48,580 nucleotides of DNA, from assembly GCA_043718505.1 (NCBI GenBank), contig JAYSVN010000029.1, positions 1-48,580 on the forward strand. The letters run 5' to 3'. Of this stretch, positions 2,078-35,111 are shown one piece after another. Under the pieces are notes generated by a model that was not told the origin of the DNA, did not search any database, and saw only the letters and a list, made by a program, of their open reading frames with translations. Origin of the DNA: Minisyncoccota bacterium (GTDB taxonomy: Bacteria; Patescibacteriota; Minisyncoccia; Phycocordibacterales; UBA9973). Positions within the stretch are counted from its first letter, which is position 1, and every line of letters begins with the position of its first letter. Position numbers and translations under genes: made by a program.

Positions 2078-3535
2078 TTATTTACTGAAATTTCTCTTTG
2101 GTCCGCCTGATCTACTCGGTGAAGATCCGGGTTTTGAAAACCTGCTACTCGATGAACTTCGCTTTGCATAACCGCTGGATTTTGAAAATGAGCGCTGTGG
2201 GCGTTGTGCACCGCCTGAACGTTGCGAACCAAACGATTGCGCACCGAAAGGACGCGATCCTGATACACCATGGTGCACTGGCGGGCGTGATGAGTCGCCG
2301 CGCGAGGAGCGAAATCCGCCTGGTCGTGAAGAACCACTGCGGGATGATCCTGATCTTGGATTACTGCCTTGATAATTTGAAGGTGCTGCTGAAACACCTG
2401 GCAAATCACTCGGCAATGGTGTCATCTTAATTGGTTTGCGAATAAGACGCTCAATATCTTTAATATCTTTTCGCTCTTCAGGCGTAGCAAAAGAAATCGC
2501 ATGACCGGCAGCACCTGCACGGGCAGTTCGGCCGATGCGGTGAACATAATCTTCTGACTGGCTCGGTAAATCAAAGTTGATGACGAGTTCAATATTTTTG
2601 ACATCGATTCCGCGCGCCACAATATCAGTCGCAACTAGCACGCGATACTTACCTGCTTTAAATCCTTCAAGTGCGGCTTTGCGTTGATTGAGTGAACGGT
2701 TTGAGTGAATTTCAGCAGCGGTGTGACCCATATGCATGACTTTGTAGGCAACTTTAGTTGCGCCGTGTTTAGTACGAGTAAAAATAATTGCCGAGCCCTT
2801 GTAATCAGTGAGAACTTTTTCAAGCAAGCGTAATTTGTCATCGCGCCGTACTACAAAAATTTCCTGCGTAACATTTGCGGCAGTAGTTCCTTGTGGTGCA
2901 ATTTCAATTTGCAAAGGAATTTTCATAGCTTTTGTTGCAATAGTCAAAATTTCAGCCGAAAGAGTTGCCGAAAAAAGCATTGTTTGACGCTCAGTCGGAA
3001 TTGCGGCAAGAATTTGTTTGATCGAAGGCAAAAATCCCATGTCGAGCATGCGATCAGCTTCGTCGAGTACAAGGAATTTTACCTTACTGAGGTTTACGTT
3101 TTTATTTTCCATGTGATCGATGAGACGACCAGGAGTTGCTATGACAACCATTGGATGACGCTTGAGTGCAGCAATTTGTGGACGCATCGGTGCACCACCA
3201 ATGAGTACAACAGGACGAACACCGAGTGGCGTACCAACTTTTGAAAATGTTTCTTCGACTTGGAGTGCTAGTTCACGTGTTGGAACAACAATAAGCGCCA
3301 TACCGGTGCCGGAAAGAAGACCCTGAATAACAGGTATGCCAAAAGCCAGGGTTTTACCTGTTCCTGTCTGTGCAATACCGACAATATCTTTACCTGCGAG
3401 CGCAGGCGCAATTGCCTGTTCTTGAATTGGAGTCGGAGTCGTATATGCGATTTTATCTAAGATCGTAAGGAGGTTGGGCGCGATGCCAAGATTCCGAAAC
3501 GTTGGGCCATTAGCGCCCGGGGTTGGTATATTCAT
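2078..3535 (-). CDS. DEAD-box ATP-dependent RNA helicase with an RGG/SR-rich C-terminal tail
   Basis: Q-motif region TPIQ, Walker A AQTGTGKT, DEAD (VLDEADRMLDMGF), SAT, ARGID and HRIGRTARAG motifs. The C-terminal ~90 aa are low complexity (SRSGSSRPGGFRSSRGDSSRP...). Confidence 0.93.
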   Translation of the reverse strand: MNIPTPGANGPTFRNLGIAPNLLTILDKIAYTTPTPIQEQAIAPALAGKDIVGIAQTGTGKTLAFGIPVIQGLLSGTGMALIVVPTRELALQVEETFSKVGTPLGVRPVVLIGGAPMRPQIAALKRHPMVVIATPGRLIDHMENKNVNLSKVKFLVLDEADRMLDMGFLPSIKQILAAIPTERQTMLFSATLSAEILTIATKAMKIPLQIEIAPQGTTAANVTQEIFVVRRDDKLRLLEKVLTDYKGSAIIFTRTKHGATKVAYKVMHMGHTAAEIHSNRSLNQRKAALEGFKAGKYRVLVATDIVARGIDVKNIELVINFDLPSQSEDYVHRIGRTARAGAAGHAISFATPEERKDIKDIERLIRKPIKMTPLPSDLPGVSAAPSNYQGSNPRSGSSRSGSSRPGGFRSSRGDSSRPPVHHGVSGSRPFGAQSFGSQRSGGAQRPQRSFSKSSGYAKRSSSSSRFSKPGSSPSRSGGPKRNFSK

Positions 3536-3641
3536 TACTTAGGTTGTGAATATACCATGGTTTGGGTTATTTAGCAATTTTTAAGTGTTTTTAATATTTA
3601 ATTAAGATTTTATTAATAGCAATCCCGGTACTATATTAGCT

Positions 3642-4328
3642 ATGACATCAAAATGGATACAATTAAAACCCCAGGCTATCGCCCTTAGACTCGAGGGTAC
3701 ATCCATAAGAGAAATCGAAAAATTGCTTGGAATTGCTCGATCGACTTTAAGTGGGTGGCTAAAAGAAGTAATTATTCCAGAGGAGAATAGACAAAAACTC
3801 AGAACACCCATATGGAAAAATTTGGAAAAGGGGCGGGTAAATGCAATTGCTTGGCATAATATGCAGAAACAGAATCGTTTACTGGCAGCTAAAACTGAAG
3901 CTGACAGACTGCTGCTATTGATTGATTTTACAAATATTATTATTGCAAAGTTATTTTTATCTTCTTTATATCTAGGTGAAGGGAGCAAGAAAAGTATTGC
4001 AACTTCTATGGGTAACAGCGACCCACTTATTCTTAAATTTTTTATTGAATCACTTGTTCATTTATATAAAGTAGATAGAAATACTATTAGGTTTGATTTA
4101 CACCTTCGAGCAGACCAGGATGGTGATACATTGAAAATATATTGGGCTAATCAGTTAAATCTGCCAGTTCAAAACTGTAGGACAATTTCTTACGACAAAA
4201 GAACAGTTGGCAAAACAACATACCCAGATTATAAAGGAGTATGTTTAGTACGCGGTGGCTCAGTTGCGATTCAAAGAGAATTAGTATATCTTAGTAGAGG
4301 ATTTATAAAGAAATTCTTGCGCGGTTAG
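3642..4328 (+). CDS. HTH + LAGLIDADG-like (homing-endonuclease-like) protein, paralog A
   Basis: N-terminal resolvase/sigma-r4-type HTH (LRLEGTSIREIEKLLGIARSTLSGWLK). A degenerate LAGLIDADG motif LYLGEGSK follows, then NSDP...YW.N and a G.VRGGSV block that resemble the I-CreI-type core. It is clearly homologous to ORF 33864-34469. The stop codon (4326-4328) lies inside the 5' end of tRNA-Val. Confidence 0.6.
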   Translation: MTSKWIQLKPQAIALRLEGTSIREIEKLLGIARSTLSGWLKEVIIPEENRQKLRTPIWKNLEKGRVNAIAWHNMQKQNRLLAAKTEADRLLLLIDFTNIIIAKLFLSSLYLGEGSKKSIATSMGNSDPLILKFFIESLVHLYKVDRNTIRFDLHLRADQDGDTLKIYWANQLNLPVQNCRTISYDKRTVGKTTYPDYKGVCLVRGGSVAIQRELVYLSRGFIKKFLRG

Positions 4329-4392
4329 CTCAGTTGGTACGAGCGCGCCGTTGACGTCGGCGAGGTCGCAAGTTCGATCCTTGCACCGCGCA
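4319..4392 (+). tRNA. tRNA-Val (anticodon GAC)
   Basis: Hand-folded cloverleaf. Acceptor GCGCGGT/ACCGCGC, D-arm GCTC..GAGC, anticodon stem CGCCG/CGGCG with loop TTGACGT, T-arm GCAAG-TTCGATC-CTTGC, discriminator A. No CCA is encoded. Confidence 0.85.
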
Positions 4393-4422
4393 CACTACAA
4401 TACTGCTTCTGGATTCAAGAAG

Positions 4423-5457
4423 TTACTTCTTCTCCTCCCCCAAAAACTTAATCAAAGAATCAGAAACTGCTTTCACCTCTTTGTCATCAAACATTGAAAC
4501 TGACAGCACGTGCTTGCTCAATTTTTTGAAAGCTTTTACTTCATTGGCAATTATTTTTGGATCAACAAGGTCAGTTTTGGTTAGAATAATGACTTCTTCT
4601 TTATGTTCAAGGCCTTTACCAAAAGTTTCAAGTTCATTACGAATGGCTTTATAAGCTTCGAGCATTCCAGTGCTGCCTTTTTTATTACTTTCATTTACTT
4701 CAACATTTTCTTCGCCATGGCCTAAATAATTTTCAAAAGAAATTAAATGGGCAATCATTTTTGTTTTTGTAATATGTCGCAAAAATTTTGTACCAAGACC
4801 TTTACCTTCTGATGCTCCTTCAATAAGCCCCGGAATATCGGCAATGATGTGTCCGTAAAAATCACCAAGGTTCGGATCAAGCGTAGTAAAAGCGTAATCG
4901 CCGACTTTGGCACGCGCACTTGTGAGCGCATTGAGCAAACTCGATTTGCCGGCATTTGGAAAACCCACCAGGCCAATGTCCGCATACAGCGAAAGTTCAA
5001 TTTTAAAACGCGCCTCTTCACCTTCCCTTCCCGCTGTTGCCCAGCGAGGCGACTGATTGGTCGAACTTTTGAAATGTTCATTGCCTTTACCGCCTGAACC
5101 ACCGGCTAGAATTTTGGCACGATCACCTGTTTCAACTAATTCATACGTACTGCCGGTATTGAGGTTGGTAATAGTAGAACCCACCGGCAATTTCATAATA
5201 TAGTCTTCACCATCACCGCCCTTGCGACTTGAACCTTCACCATCTTCACCACGTCCGGCTTTAATTTTTCTTTTTGATTTATAGTCAGCCAGCACAAAAA
5301 CATCACGAATAGCTTCCGCGATGACGTCTCCGCCTTTGCCTCCGTCGCCGCCATTCGGGCCGCCACGATCGATAAATTTTTCCTGGCGCCAACGAACAAC
5401 CCCGTCGCCACCGCGACCAGCCATTGCTTCTATTTCAATTTCATCAATAAGTGCCAT
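4423..5457 (-). CDS. obg: GTPase Obg/CgtA
   Basis: Obg fold Gly-rich N-domain (GGDGGKGG, GGSGGKGN), then the G-domain GFPNAGKSSLLNAL and DIPGLIEGAS. Confidence 0.93.
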   Translation of the reverse strand: MALIDEIEIEAMAGRGGDGVVRWRQEKFIDRGGPNGGDGGKGGDVIAEAIRDVFVLADYKSKRKIKAGRGEDGEGSSRKGGDGEDYIMKLPVGSTITNLNTGSTYELVETGDRAKILAGGSGGKGNEHFKSSTNQSPRWATAGREGEEARFKIELSLYADIGLVGFPNAGKSSLLNALTSARAKVGDYAFTTLDPNLGDFYGHIIADIPGLIEGASEGKGLGTKFLRHITKTKMIAHLISFENYLGHGEENVEVNESNKKGSTGMLEAYKAIRNELETFGKGLEHKEEVIILTKTDLVDPKIIANEVKAFKKLSKHVLSVSMFDDKEVKAVSDSLIKFLGEEKK

Positions 5458-5499
5458 GGGGATTTTTTTGTTAGTGCAGCTATTTGCTACCGCACTACT

Positions 5500-6447
5500 C
5501 TACGATTCTAAAGCGATTTTGGCAAGGTTAATGGCACCTTCCTGGGTTTTGGCAAAAGCCAGAAATCGGCCATTATGACAAAAAGTTGCATCAGGCACGC
5601 CGGAAACATTGGCTAGCTCACTATCTGAAAGTCCGGCCCAGGCCTCAGGAAATGATTTCCTTTTTTCAAATGAGCTCTCTGAAATCGGAACCGTTTCGGC
5701 ACTCCACGTTCCACCATTATTCGGATAGACGAAAAATTTTATTTCAGGCAAAGCAGAAAGCGTATGGATAAAATTAATGCGTTCATAGTCTTTGGCAAAA
5801 ATAATGAGTGACTTATTGTTGCTGGCGTTATAGGTTTCGGTAATTTCTCTGGCCGCATCCAGACTCGCTCTTTGTACGATAATGTATCTCTCAAGAAAAG
5901 CTTTGGCTTTTGAAACTGCTACTGTGAATCGTTCATTCATAAGAGCTTCATTACCCTTTTCCTCCCATGTTGGTTTTTCAATCATGGCAAAAAGCCAGAC
6001 CGGCGCCGAAAAAACTCCTTCGATCAAATTTTTGGAAATATCAAAACCATTATCATTGGCATCAATTGCGCAAACAAGCTCATTTTCTATTTTTTGCCAC
6101 AAGGCTTCGTCGTCTCCACAAACCTGTTTGCCGAAATGTTTCCAGACTAAACCAAATGATGCATACGGAACACCATTATCACGTTTACCAGCTCCGCCTT
6201 TTTGGTGATGGTCAAAACGGTTACATGCTGGATCATATTCACCTCCGACATCGACGACATAGTCGCCCGTCGCAATTTCATCGGGATGGCGGGAGCGAAT
6301 AACCTTAATTACTTGCTCAGAACTATTTGCTTTTTGCTCTGCTTCTCCGAGCATCATCAAAAGTGTCGCCACTGCAAAAACATCATCTGCATGAAAAGAA
6401 GCGCTGTGGGTTACGATTTTTATTTCTTTTGTATCATTGTCGTTCAT
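5500..6447 (-). CDS. MYG1/UPF0160 family metal-dependent hydrolase
   Basis: N-terminal HSASFHADDVFA signature typical of UPF0160/MYG1. Confidence 0.75.
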   Translation of the reverse strand: MNDNDTKEIKIVTHSASFHADDVFAVATLLMMLGEAEQKANSSEQVIKVIRSRHPDEIATGDYVVDVGGEYDPACNRFDHHQKGGAGKRDNGVPYASFGLVWKHFGKQVCGDDEALWQKIENELVCAIDANDNGFDISKNLIEGVFSAPVWLFAMIEKPTWEEKGNEALMNERFTVAVSKAKAFLERYIIVQRASLDAAREITETYNASNNKSLIIFAKDYERINFIHTLSALPEIKFFVYPNNGGTWSAETVPISESSFEKRKSFPEAWAGLSDSELANVSGVPDATFCHNGRFLAFAKTQEGAINLAKIALES

Positions 6448-21186: not shown

Positions 21187-21732
21187 ATGGCGACAAAATT
21201 CCCACGTATTCAATTCGAAAAATACGGCGAGTACGTATCTGCTGTAATTCACGTAAGTGAAAAAGAGACTACCCTTGCCCTTCCGTCACGAAGCTCTCTG
21301 GCATTTAAGCTCAAACAGTTAGTGGGTGAACAAAAAATCTCGAGATTTAATTTTATTGAATTTATTAAGCTGGCAATTATAGAAAAGATGATTGACCGGG
21401 TTTTGACTGAGGAAGATGATGACCCTATTTCTGAAATGTTTAGAGAGTATATGGGTGAATTCATGCTGGAGAAGGCAATGAATAATCCATATTCTGAGAG
21501 ACCTTGTATCAGGAAGAAAAAACTTGATAGCCAGTTTGAATGGTTTTTCTCGAGCCAGAACAGTTACTCAAATCCTTTCAGAACAAAGACTGAGGGAGAA
21601 GGAGAACTACTAGACTTGCTTGCTGAGAAAGACTCCGTCTCTGATGAAATTCAAGAGATGTACAAATTACTCTATATTTCAAAAGAGATCCCTGGAAAAG
21701 TGAAAAACTACAAAGAAGGTTGGCTGAATTGA
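21187..21732 (+). CDS. hypothetical protein (181 aa)
   Basis: ORF with its own strong promoter and terminator; no family recognised. Confidence 0.5.
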   Translation: MATKFPRIQFEKYGEYVSAVIHVSEKETTLALPSRSSLAFKLKQLVGEQKISRFNFIEFIKLAIIEKMIDRVLTEEDDDPISEMFREYMGEFMLEKAMNNPYSERPCIRKKKLDSQFEWFFSSQNSYSNPFRTKTEGEGELLDLLAEKDSVSDEIQEMYKLLYISKEIPGKVKNYKEGWLN

Positions 21733-29887: not shown

Positions 29888-29934
29888 TACCGGTTTTGTA
29901 AAAATGCTTTCAAAATGTATAGTTAGGGCCATGC

Positions 29935-30016
29935 CGTGGTGGCGAAATTGGCAGACGCACTACGTTCAGGTCGTAGCGAGAGCAATCTCGTGGGAGTTCA
30001 AGTCTCCCCCACGGCA
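29935..30016 (+). tRNA. tRNA-Leu (anticodon CAG)
   Basis: Acceptor GCCGTGG/CCACGGC, anticodon stem CTACG/CGTAG with loop TTCAGGT, long variable arm, T-arm GGGAG-TTCAAGT-CTCCC. Confidence 0.85.
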
Positions 30017-30023
30017 CATAGTT

Positions 30024-32639: not shown

Positions 32640-32641
32640 TG

Positions 32642-32815
32642 TGGGCAATTGAGGAATCGAACCTCACTCCGAGAAATAATACTTCCCGTTCGGCTAAAGC
32701 CGACCACGCTGCCCGTAACCCCGCCGAAGCGGGGCTCGAGCGTTGCGCCGCAATAATATTGAAGCGTTGAGCTCTTGACCTACGTCGTCTTACGACGACA
32801 TTGCAGGCCCGTTTG
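32642..32815 (-). ncRNA. unassigned structured RNA element with a tRNA-like 3' end (T-arm and acceptor 3' strand) and GNRA/UUCG-capped hairpins
   Basis: On the minus strand the segment ends ...TGAGG-TTCGATT-CCTCA-ATTGCCC-A, a canonical T-arm plus 3' acceptor strand. It is preceded by the hairpins CGTCGTC-GTAA-GACGACG, CCCCGC-TTCG-GCGGGG and TCGGC-TTTA-GCCGA. I could not find a proper 5' acceptor strand, D-arm or a sensible anticodon. The boundaries are approximate. Confidence 0.35.
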
Positions 32816-33799: not shown

Positions 33800-33863
33800 G
33801 GTATTTACATTTATTTTATTTAAAATAAAGATTTCCTTTATCTCTGTTTGGTATAATTACTGG

Positions 33864-34469
33864 ATGCCGAGATTAGACCAGAAATTATATCCTCAAATAA
33901 AAGCTCTTTACGAGAGTGGTTTTCCAATGACTAGAATTGCTAAGCATTACAACGTAACACTTGATACTGTTACATATGCCATGAGAAAGGGTAAAATTCC
34001 TCGTAGAAATATGAAAGAGGTACAAGCACTTAGGTTTAAACAAAAAATTCCATCATTCACAATCAACAAACCCAAGACGCAGGCTGAAAAAAATATCATT
34101 ACTACGGGTGTAGCTTTATATTGGGCTGAAGGCTATAAAACAAACAGGGCCAAAGGTATAGATTTTGCAAATAGTGATCCATCAATGATTTTGGTATTTA
34201 TGAAATTTCTTCGTACCTGTTATGAATTAGATGAAAGTCGATTGAGGGCCTCATTGTATGCCTATAGTGACCAAAACATTAATGAGCTTACAGATTATTG
34301 GAGTAATGTAACTGCTATTCAGAAATCACAGTTCATAAAGCCATATATTCGGACTGATTTTAAAATATATGGCAGAAAAATGAAGTACGGCCTTGTTCAT
34401 GTTCGATATAATGACAAAAAGCTACTTTTTGATATAATGGGGCGCATCGAGGTTTTGAGACGAGAATAA
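33864..34469 (+). CDS. HTH + LAGLIDADG-like (homing-endonuclease-like) protein, paralog B
   Basis: N-terminal HTH (ESGFPMTRIAKHYNVTLDTVTYAMRKGK), the motif LYWAEGYK, NSDP...YW.N, and a KYGLVHVRYNDKKL block. It aligns with ORF 3642-4328 along the whole core. Its stop codon is 1 nt before tRNA-Tyr. Confidence 0.6.
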   Translation: MPRLDQKLYPQIKALYESGFPMTRIAKHYNVTLDTVTYAMRKGKIPRRNMKEVQALRFKQKIPSFTINKPKTQAEKNIITTGVALYWAEGYKTNRAKGIDFANSDPSMILVFMKFLRTCYELDESRLRASLYAYSDQNINELTDYWSNVTAIQKSQFIKPYIRTDFKIYGRKMKYGLVHVRYNDKKLLFDIMGRIEVLRRE

Positions 34470-34470
34470 T

Positions 34471-34554
34471 GCGCCGGTGGCGGAGTGGTCAATCGCATTT
34501 GGCTGTAAACCAAACGTCCTCGCGACTACGAAGGTTCGAATCCTTCCCGGCGCA
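34471..34554 (+). tRNA. tRNA-Tyr (anticodon GTA)
   Basis: Type II tRNA. Acceptor GCGCCGG/CCGGCGC, anticodon stem TTTGG/CCAAA with loop CTGTAAA, 15-nt variable arm, T-arm GAAGG-TTCGAAT-CCTTC. Confidence 0.85.
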
Positions 34555-34583
34555 CAAATAAACTGAACTTTAAAAACTGAAAA

Positions 34584-35111
34584 ATGGAAGAGGAAGAAAA
34601 CACTAAATTTCCCGCTATTACTGAAAATATATTAGCCATGTGCAAACTGGATCAGGACATGAGAGAAAGAACCCTCGATACATCTTTTACCGACGAGGAT
34701 GTACAGATCGATAGAGATAACACAACAAATATGCAGATTATTGTTAATTCAATAGGATGGCCTACAATTTCAAAAGTCGGCAAAACTGCCTAAGATGCAG
34801 CCTGGCTTTTGGTTCAATATGCTGACCACGATATTGATTTTCAAAAGCAATGTTTACAGCTTATGAAAGAAGCCGCTCCTGGTGAAGTTACTTTATTTAC
34901 AATTGCGTACCTTGAAGACCGCGTTCGAGTTAACTTGAAGCAAAATCAACTGTATGGAACTCAATGTAATGAAATTGAAGGAAGGTTTGTTCCCCGACCT
35001 ATTGAGGATCTTCAGAATGTTAATAAGAGGAGAAAGGCTATGGGGCTCGGCACACTTGAAGAAGGCATCGCTCATATGTACAAAAAGTATAATAAAAAAA
35101 CACCCGATTAA
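34584..35111 (+). pseudogene. hypothetical protein interrupted by a single in-frame TAA (34791-34793): two same-frame ORFs, 34584-34793 and 34809-35111
   Basis: The two track ORFs are in the same frame (225 nt apart) with exactly one stop between them. The continuous conceptual protein is ...SKVGKTA*DAAWLLVQYADHDIDFQ... A strong terminator closes the locus. Confidence 0.45.

Follow-up and report, generated by a model that had tools for sequence, protein, structure and literature searches.

The stretch of DNA analysed here, referred to as the window, is contig JAYSVN010000029.1 of the Minisyncoccota bacterium assembly GCA_043718505.1, taken over its full length of 48,580 nucleotides (nt). It contains an open reading frame (ORF) that fills the 5′ leader of a tRNA-Tyr(GTA) gene, from the predicted transcription start to the first nucleotide of the tRNA (+1), i.e. 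the RNase P site. The ORF encodes an N-terminal helix-turn-helix (HTH) module followed by a C-terminal domain with a predicted LAGLIDADG-like fold, and it has a paralog elsewhere in the window that runs into a tRNA-Val(GAC) gene (Table 1); we refer to the two as Tyr-type and Val-type. The gap between the Tyr-type ORF and its tRNA is exactly 1 nt (34469 vs. 34471), as the first-pass annotation, made by a model from the sequence and its ORFs, had noticed; the end coordinate given there, 34554, takes in the tRNA-Tyr gene, and the ORF itself ends at 34469.

Table 1. Features of the two ORF–tRNA units of the window (promoters and domains as predicted).
Feature	Position	Strand	Details
Promoter P1 of the Tyr-type ORF–tRNA unit	33836..33857	+	Extended −10 TGgTATAAT: TG 33849-33850, TATAAT 33852-33857
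Tyr-type ORF, HTH + LAGLIDADG-like family	33864..34469	+	201 amino acids; ATG start; TAA stop 34467-34469
N-terminal three-helix HTH DNA-binding module of Tyr-type ORF	33879..33989	+	Residues ~6-42
C-terminal α/β domain of Tyr-type ORF, LAGLIDADG-like fold	34047..34466	+	Residues 62-201
Promoter-like site P2 in last ORF codons	34411..34438	+	ATGACA-16 nt-TATAAT, upstream TG, 11/12 matches
tRNA-Tyr(GTA), partner gene	34471..34555	+	ARAGORN; Rfam RF00005 match 34471-34554, 63.8 bits
Val-type paralog ORF	3642..4328	+	228 amino acids; stop TAG = tRNA-Val nucleotides 8-10
tRNA-Val(GAC), partner of paralog	4319..4393	+	ARAGORN, Rfam; overlapped by the Val-type ORF by 10 nt

Our alignments establish the two ORFs as true paralogs: in BLASTP they share 25% identity across 166 columns (E = 4e-11); with a profile of Val-type proteins alone (A2), hhalign recovers the Tyr-type ORF at a probability of 96.5% (E = 7e-10, 160 columns); and the Tyr-type ORF of a second genome matches that profile at 49.5 bits (E = 1e-14). 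The first-pass annotation had proposed this kinship and was prepared to give it up should pairwise and profile alignment fail; both gave significant alignments, and all the motifs it listed are found (LYWAEGYK/LYLGEGSK, NSDP, DQ, YWSN/YWAN and KYGLVHVR/YKGVCLVR).

The same annotation took two ORF-then-tRNA junctions with different tRNAs to point to a rule rather than chance, and a search for further copies and their 3′ neighbours confirms this. The Tyr-type protein has at least 439 homologs, all unnamed and almost none with Pfam domains, and the Val-type protein has at least 518, also unnamed; the hosts of both are nearly all metagenome-assembled genomes of Patescibacteria. We fetched 80 genomic loci for the Tyr-type and 80 metagenomic loci for the Val-type, in each case the best 80 matches and via the protein alone. 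A tRNA-Tyr gene follows the Tyr-type copy in 74/76 informative loci (65 intact and 9 intron-split), with the intact tRNA-Tyr(GTA) beginning −90 to +43 nt from the ORF stop in 65 of the 80; among the remaining loci, four run off the contig, one copy precedes tRNA-Thr(GGT) (L047) and one is unassigned. tRNA-Val(GAC) follows the Val-type copy in 73/80 loci, 34 of these 73 with the same 10-nt overlap as in the window; three further loci run off the contig, and four, probably from one organism, have a decayed tRNA-like sequence. The stop codon lies within the tRNA in 36/64 Tyr loci and 65/73 Val loci and is often built from tRNA nucleotides (T8-A9-G10, or U35-A36-A37 of the Tyr anticodon loop), so that in most loci no terminator or spacer can part the two genes; indeed, none was found in any Tyr-type or Val-type locus examined. 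The tie of each subfamily to the 5′ side of one tRNA, seen in well over 100 independent loci and far beyond chance, is thus strongly borne out.

The fetched loci also include more distant relatives placed before other tRNA genes: tRNA-Thr(GGT) in L009, L047 and L076, tRNA-Trp in L030, tRNA-Gly(GCC) in L115, L118, L134 and L139, and tRNA-Ile(TAT) in L135. In L047, the Tyr-type ORF (2709-3676) carries two HTH modules and takes up the whole spacer between two tRNA genes: its ATG directly follows tRNA-Tyr, beginning at the next base, and only 10 nt part its end from tRNA-Thr(GGT). This cassette has switched its tRNA partner.

Duplicated or decayed tRNA sequences were seen at some loci. In L096, L097, L098 and L100, the Val-type ORF is closely preceded by intact tRNA-Ile and tRNA-Val(GAC) genes and directly followed by what resembles a decayed tRNA-Val (in L097, the tRNA pair at 2277-2438 and the decayed sequence at 3196-3275); this arrangement suggests a duplication of the partner tRNA, after which the copy next to the ORF decayed. 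In L030, the locus with the ORF before tRNA-Trp, an extra partial copy of tRNA-Thr(GGT) comprising its 3′ two-thirds (3866-3925) follows the intact gene.

P1 follows a promoter pattern with a single occurrence in the window, and its −10 hexamer ends 6 nt upstream of the ATG; given this distance, the transcript should begin at or beside the A of the start codon, and a leaderless mRNA is expected. A −10 element ending exactly 6 nt before the ATG is found in 14/22 Tyr-type and 58/76 Val-type loci (11 more Val-type loci have it at 7 nt), usually together with a good −35 element. Judging from promoter geometry, leaderless mRNAs appear common in this bacterium: 13/40 ORFs of at least 150 amino acids in the window have a −10-like hexamer ending 5–8 nt before the first ATG (for example those starting at 21187, 8030 and 39652 on the + strand), compared to 2.4% of random positions. 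The second promoter-like site, P2, ends 33 nt before tRNA-Tyr and could drive transcription of the tRNA independently of P1. The closest relatives keep it, at −31 to −36 in L001-L004 and L007 and at −44 in L005; in another clade, an embedded site that differs from P2 lies at −18 to −20. That P2 constrains the DKKLL motif throughout the family was rejected: the site is clade-specific, and the GAC codon is used for Asp184 in 35% of cases vs. 26% at other Asp codons.

We sampled the site independently of the ORF by searching for relatives of the neighbouring ClpB and reading their contigs. tRNA-Tyr lies beside ClpB in 7/7 distinct ClpB-anchored genomes that reach that far, and of these genomes L163 alone carries the ORF. 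The window has it too, as does L001, which was fetched through the ORF. Empty tRNA-Tyr sites occur in L162, L164, L166/167 and L168, with ClpB ~90% identical to that of the window, and in L169 and L170, with ClpB 76% identical. The empty site consists of the membrane-protein gene, the promoter CTTAACTTTTTCCnAAAATCCTGTATAGTAT, ~10 nt and the tRNA, the junction in L162/L164 reading …CCTGTATAGTATTTGGCGTA|TGCGTCGGTGGCGGAGTGGTCAA…. The promoter upstream of the ORF in the filled sites of L163 and L001 is homologous to the empty-site tRNA-Tyr promoter (z 2.1-5.7), whereas the sequence just 5′ of the tRNA in filled sites has no homology to it; filled and empty sites therefore differ by a coding sequence placed in a leader of a few nucleotides. 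For P1 of the window itself, homology to the empty-site promoter is not detectable (z 0.0-0.7).

In the ClpB tree, filled and empty sites are interspersed: the closest neighbour of filled L163 is empty L162, that of the window is L001, filled like it, and neither outgroup carries the ORF. Within this shallow clade the ORF has been gained or lost at least twice. The locus has two properties of free-standing homing endonuclease genes: presence or absence at the same site among related genomes, and a single ORF between conserved genes, none of them disrupted and the tRNA intact. Rarer subfamilies are likewise sporadic, occurring before tRNA-Thr(GGT) in 3/25 cases and before tRNA-Trp in 1/27, and at the tRNA-Trp site L030 is filled with ~700 nt where its relatives are empty.

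Some further features were observed around the tRNA-Tyr gene. In L168, ~540 nt without a called gene (5352-5894) lie upstream of the empty tRNA-Tyr, and neither a remnant of a family ORF nor one of the membrane-protein gene is detectable there. Between tRNA-Tyr and the convergent clpB, the window has two short adjacent ORFs of 69 and 100 amino acids (34584-35111, + strand); in relatives this spacer holds a gene of 123 amino acids (L162), one of 168 amino acids in the opposite orientation (L166) or no gene at all (L163), and so it varies as well. ARAGORN also calls two doubtful or divergent tRNAs in the window that do not reach the gathering score of the Rfam tRNA model: tRNA-Asn with the unnatural anticodon ATT (32641-32714, − strand) and tRNA-Leu(CAG) (29933-30017, + strand).

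The AlphaFold model of the Tyr-type ORF (pLDDT 94.6) suggests that its C-terminal domain has the α-β-β-α-β-β-α core fold of the LAGLIDADG type, and we regard this evidence of LAGLIDADG likeness as moderate. In the model, the first long helix (residues 73-89) is closed by Glu89-Gly90, followed by Lys92 and Asn103-Ser104-Asp105-Pro106. Among 159 distinct family ORFs from all subfamilies, Tyr86, Glu89-Gly90, Trp146 and Gly176 are invariant (159/159), and Lys92 and Asn-Ser-Asp-Pro 103-106 nearly so. The catalytic acid of LAGLIDADG enzymes lies at the C-terminal end of the first helix; by position, rather than by side-chain superposition, Glu89 would be the counterpart of the LAGLIDADG catalytic Asp/Glu. 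In P0354, P0331, P0335 and P0266 the C-terminal domain is present twice in tandem, both copies retaining the motifs, together with one or two HTH modules; the number of modules varies across the family, some members having two. Rich in Arg and Ala, these tandem members probably come from high-GC hosts outside the Patescibacteria. The invariant residues, the tandem members and the modular HTHs speak for a functional active site rather than a scaffold alone.

Membership of the LAGLIDADG family by sequence was rejected, as Pfam, NCBIfam, PHROGs, PDB sequences and hhalign against I-CreI gave HTH matches only: no LAGLIDADG Pfam family matches either window protein or any of 41 members at E ≤ 1, the A1 profile finds only HTH proteins among PDB sequences, and hhalign against I-CreI gives a probability of 0.1% with an approximate I-CreI sequence. 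Foldseek finds nothing significant in the PDB, the top hits being OmpA/YfiB-like (TM 0.3-0.4). The N-terminal HTH gives weak matches in the sequence libraries, akin to the resolvase, transposase and YlxM types, and in PHROGs a weak match to phage “HNH endonuclease” entries. The C-terminal domain defines a family of 4,386 clusters at 50% identity with E ≤ 1e-3, and of 2,559 with E ≤ 1e-10. The searchable literature yielded no account of this family, nor of ORFs inside tRNA leaders; what is new is the protein family and a precisely defined niche for a free-standing homing-endonuclease-like gene.

Our best explanation, to which we give about an even chance of being right, is that the ORF is a selfish, free-standing homing-endonuclease-like cassette that lives in tRNA leaders. 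This is the most economical account of a bare ORF with an endonuclease-like fold, an invariant acid and modular HTHs, of its exact placement beside a strongly conserved RNA gene, of its presence and absence among relatives and of the embedded promoters. The ORF would belong to a very large unnamed family of such genes, mainly in Patescibacteria, in which each protein joins one or two HTH modules to a LAGLIDADG-like domain and each subfamily occupies the 5′ leader of one tRNA gene; its coding sequence, without regulatory sequences of its own, sits between the tRNA promoter and tRNA +1. Transcription from the tRNA promoter would begin at the AUG and give a leaderless mRNA, the ORF would be translated, and RNase P would cut at the tRNA 5′ end to leave a normal tRNA. 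Because the leader would be removed by RNase P, insertion would cost the host little, and leader removal would be the counterpart of splicing for endonuclease genes borne by introns or inteins. The protein, presumably a dimer formed via the LAGLIDADG-like domain with the HTH extending the recognised site, would recognise and cut the empty promoter/tRNA junction in genomes without the cassette, and repair would copy the cassette in; the promoters embedded at the 3′ end and the place before an essential tRNA would make imprecise deletion costly. In this scheme, the data show the anatomy, the junction rule, the likeness of fold, the invariant acid and the presence/absence polymorphism, and we infer nuclease activity, the target site, homing and the RNase P separation of mRNA from tRNA.

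Several points weigh against this explanation, beginning with the fact that nuclease activity and the target site belong to its inferred part. ORF identity tracks host divergence: ORF and ClpB identities correlate (Pearson 0.59) with no strong outliers across 23 loci, a small sample; and the ORF of the window is 65% identical to that of L001 and 51% to that of L163, the neighbouring membrane protein being 74% and 49% identical. The host-discordant phylogeny that would mark horizontal spread was thus not observed, and recent horizontal transfer was rejected, there being no near-identical ORF pair in divergent hosts. The tRNA body of filled L163 is almost the same as that of empty L164, so that a target inside the tRNA would not be protected; for the same reason we rejected a resistant tRNA variant in ORF-bearing genomes. 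A leaderless start as an adaptation specific to the cassette was also rejected, since about one-third of the long ORFs in the window are alike in this respect; what sets the cassette apart is that its ORF takes up the entire stretch from transcription start to tRNA +1. Finally, retrieval of the best 80 matches disfavours decayed copies.

Among the alternatives, a domesticated, non-catalytic DNA-binding regulator similar to WhiA fares best, and we consider it unlikely. Such a protein would bind its own promoter or tRNA gene and tune the ORF–tRNA unit, the linkage reflecting autoregulation. Val-type promoters have a conserved 17-nt spacer between −35 and −10, ATTCGnACCAcTGAT, in hosts whose proteins are only ~50% identical; written as ATTCG(T/A)ACCA(C/T)TGAT, it is found in L081-L160 ~35 nt upstream of the ORF start (e.g. 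L092 1651-1663), and this operator-like conservation makes the spacer a possible operator. A regulator would also suit the parallel between ORF and host divergence, and the intact ORFs with residues strongly conserved over hundreds of lineages. However, the ORF is missing at the same tRNA in most close relatives and is therefore dispensable; Glu-Gly is invariant at the LAGLIDADG catalytic position; WhiA differs in domain order and number; and no conserved spacer was found in Tyr-type promoters. The window's own Val-type promoter (3610-3641) is also without the conserved spacer. The reverse complement of the spacer resembles the tRNA D-loop; its derivation as an inverted copy of the partner-tRNA D-arm was rejected, as the likeness comes down to TCAGTGGTA and fails to covary with the tRNA. 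Nor is the Val-type ORF enriched in partner-tRNA codons, and tRNA-sensing feedback via cognate codons was discarded as not general (by hand count, Tyr 14/201, ~7%, and Val 10/228, ~4%).

It is possible, but improbable, that the protein serves ORF-less group I introns of tRNA genes in trans, as an endonuclease that cuts intron-less tRNA genes at or near the insertion site or as a maturase that aids folding, the intron protecting the host copy (collaborative homing). Group I introns of ~190-280 nt without an ORF are present in at least 9/76 ORF-linked tRNA-Tyr genes (L022, L026, L055, L068, L075, L076, L078, L079 and L080; e.g. L076 3601-3828 and L075 3615-3868); eight are matched by RF00028 at 51-101 bits, and the ninth (L022), below the Rfam gathering score, was read by eye. 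They begin ~36 nt after the first base of tRNA-Tyr and split it at anticodon-loop position 35/36, and ARAGORN misses the genes so split. A survey of Patescibacteria tRNA introns, which sought endonuclease genes only inside the introns, found most to be without such genes, and one tRNA-Tyr intron among 95 complete genomes (PMC13011429); for phage free-standing endonucleases, collaborative or trans homing is established (PMC2988022). Against this, ~88% of ORF-linked tRNA-Tyr genes and 73/73 ORF-linked tRNA-Val genes are intron-less, and would be self-targets or leave the protein nothing to serve; the intron-bearing loci are the most divergent (L068-L080), which may reflect a lineage effect; and the comparison of intron frequency with those 95 genomes is not like for like. 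The link between ORF and intron in Patescibacteria tRNA genes is intriguing, but cannot be general because most partner tRNAs are intron-less. The ORF was never found inside a group I, group II or archaeal intron; it lies upstream of a complete tRNA, and the introns of partner tRNAs hold no ORF. The first-pass interpretation stands as a whole, one part of it with a caveat, except for the tie it suggested to intron-encoded LAGLIDADG proteins, which is not upheld.

A minimal transposon or integrative element, with the HTH protein as a transposase or recombinase aimed at tRNA 5′ ends, is very improbable. The N-terminal HTH is weakly like the HTHs of IS1, IS630, IS3 and Sleeping Beauty transposases and of resolvases, and the cassette is a discrete unit of one ORF that some tRNA genes have on their 5′ side and others lack. 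Yet we found no DDE/RNase-H, integrase, transposase or recombinase domain, the sole other domain being LAGLIDADG-like; the flanks of the cassette show neither att sites nor terminal inverted repeats, nor any convincing target duplication; copies in the same genome are distant paralogs (25% identity) rather than near-identical; and the boundaries of the cassette are the start and stop codons. Our search around the window cassette for flanking repeats or a partial tRNA duplicate yielded nothing convincing, and an ATGC microhomology at the cassette ends, present in the window and L163 and not in L001, is partly the start codon and was not used. We set aside as equally improbable a cis-encoded RNA-binding factor for processing, folding or protection of the partner pre-tRNA: LAGLIDADG proteins can evolve RNA-binding maturase functions and each subfamily is strictly paired with one tRNA, but the ORF is dispensable in close relatives with nearly the same tRNA, its HTH modules are of DNA-binding types, and library scans detected no RNA-binding domain.

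A bolder form of the homing explanation, which we advance tentatively and think doubtful as it stands, is that the family is an active, unrecognised homing element: a bare endonuclease ORF homing between tRNA promoter and tRNA, with at least six tRNA targets and high-GC two-domain relatives, that may also move ORF-less tRNA introns in trans. If the homing explanation is right, the tRNA 5′ leader would join self-splicing introns and inteins as a third “phenotypically silent” niche of homing endonuclease genes, and free-standing homing-type genes would be abundant in the cellular genomes of the most reduced bacteria and not in phages alone. At least ~2,500 clusters (50% identity, E ≤ 1e-10) now annotated as hypothetical would gain a name and a testable function, and would offer compact, naturally diversified HTH + LAGLIDADG-like scaffolds for DNA recognition with guessable targets, the promoter/tRNA junctions. 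The family also bears on how the tRNA introns of Patescibacteria, mostly without endonuclease genes, spread (PMC13011429). For annotation, more than half of the family ORFs run into the tRNA gene and gene callers are inconsistent: P0005 and P0008, considered as close paralogs on one contig, proved to be one gene with two start calls.

Comparison with known systems places the family between several of them. As in tRNA-punctuated mitochondrial transcripts and tRNA-linked mRNAs, the mRNA end would be set by the processing site of a flanking tRNA and the stop often lies within the tRNA; unlike in tRNA punctuation, a single accessory ORF of a bacterial chromosome is concerned, the arrangement is not genome-wide, and the processing is predicted. 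Among the closest systems are the homodimeric, single-motif LAGLIDADG enzymes I-CreI, I-CeuI, I-MsoI and I-Vdi141I, together with intein endonuclease domains. The family differs from these in its motif, LYW(A/G)EG.K, and in having no sequence-level match to LAGLIDADG models; in a short first β-hairpin and an extra helix between strands 3 and 4, as predicted by the model; and in a fused N-terminal HTH, a gene outside introns and inteins, and an activity that is predicted. The tandem two-domain members recall the route from homodimers to double-motif monomers among LAGLIDADG enzymes, and the varying number of HTHs matches the modular style of homing endonucleases.

WhiA, which is broadly conserved, has two degenerate LAGLIDADG domains without catalytic acids followed by a C-terminal HTH. 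The family, in contrast, has an N-terminal HTH, one domain and an invariant Glu-Gly, is sporadic among relatives, and its proteins give no match to the Pfam WhiA model. The resemblance to collaborative homing (F-CphI/psbA and mobE/nrdB) lies in an endonuclease-like gene that in some genomes adjoins a gene with an ORF-less group I intron (PMC2988022); here, however, most partner tRNAs are intron-less, and a cut at the intron insertion site is hypothetical.

The T-even phage genes segB, segG, segA and mobE are likewise single ORFs between conserved genes, present or absent among relatives. In T4, the free-standing endonuclease gene segB lies between tRNA genes and its product cuts in that tRNA region; segG and other genes of this kind contain promoters of essential genes, which is considered to help them persist (PMC2988022), and the P2 site of the window ORF is a parallel. 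Whereas the T-even genes encode GIY-YIG or HNH enzymes, reside in phages and are loosely intergenic, the family described here is LAGLIDADG-like, resides in cellular genomes, sits precisely between promoter and tRNA +1, and comprises diverged subfamilies that are linked to at least six tRNAs in all.

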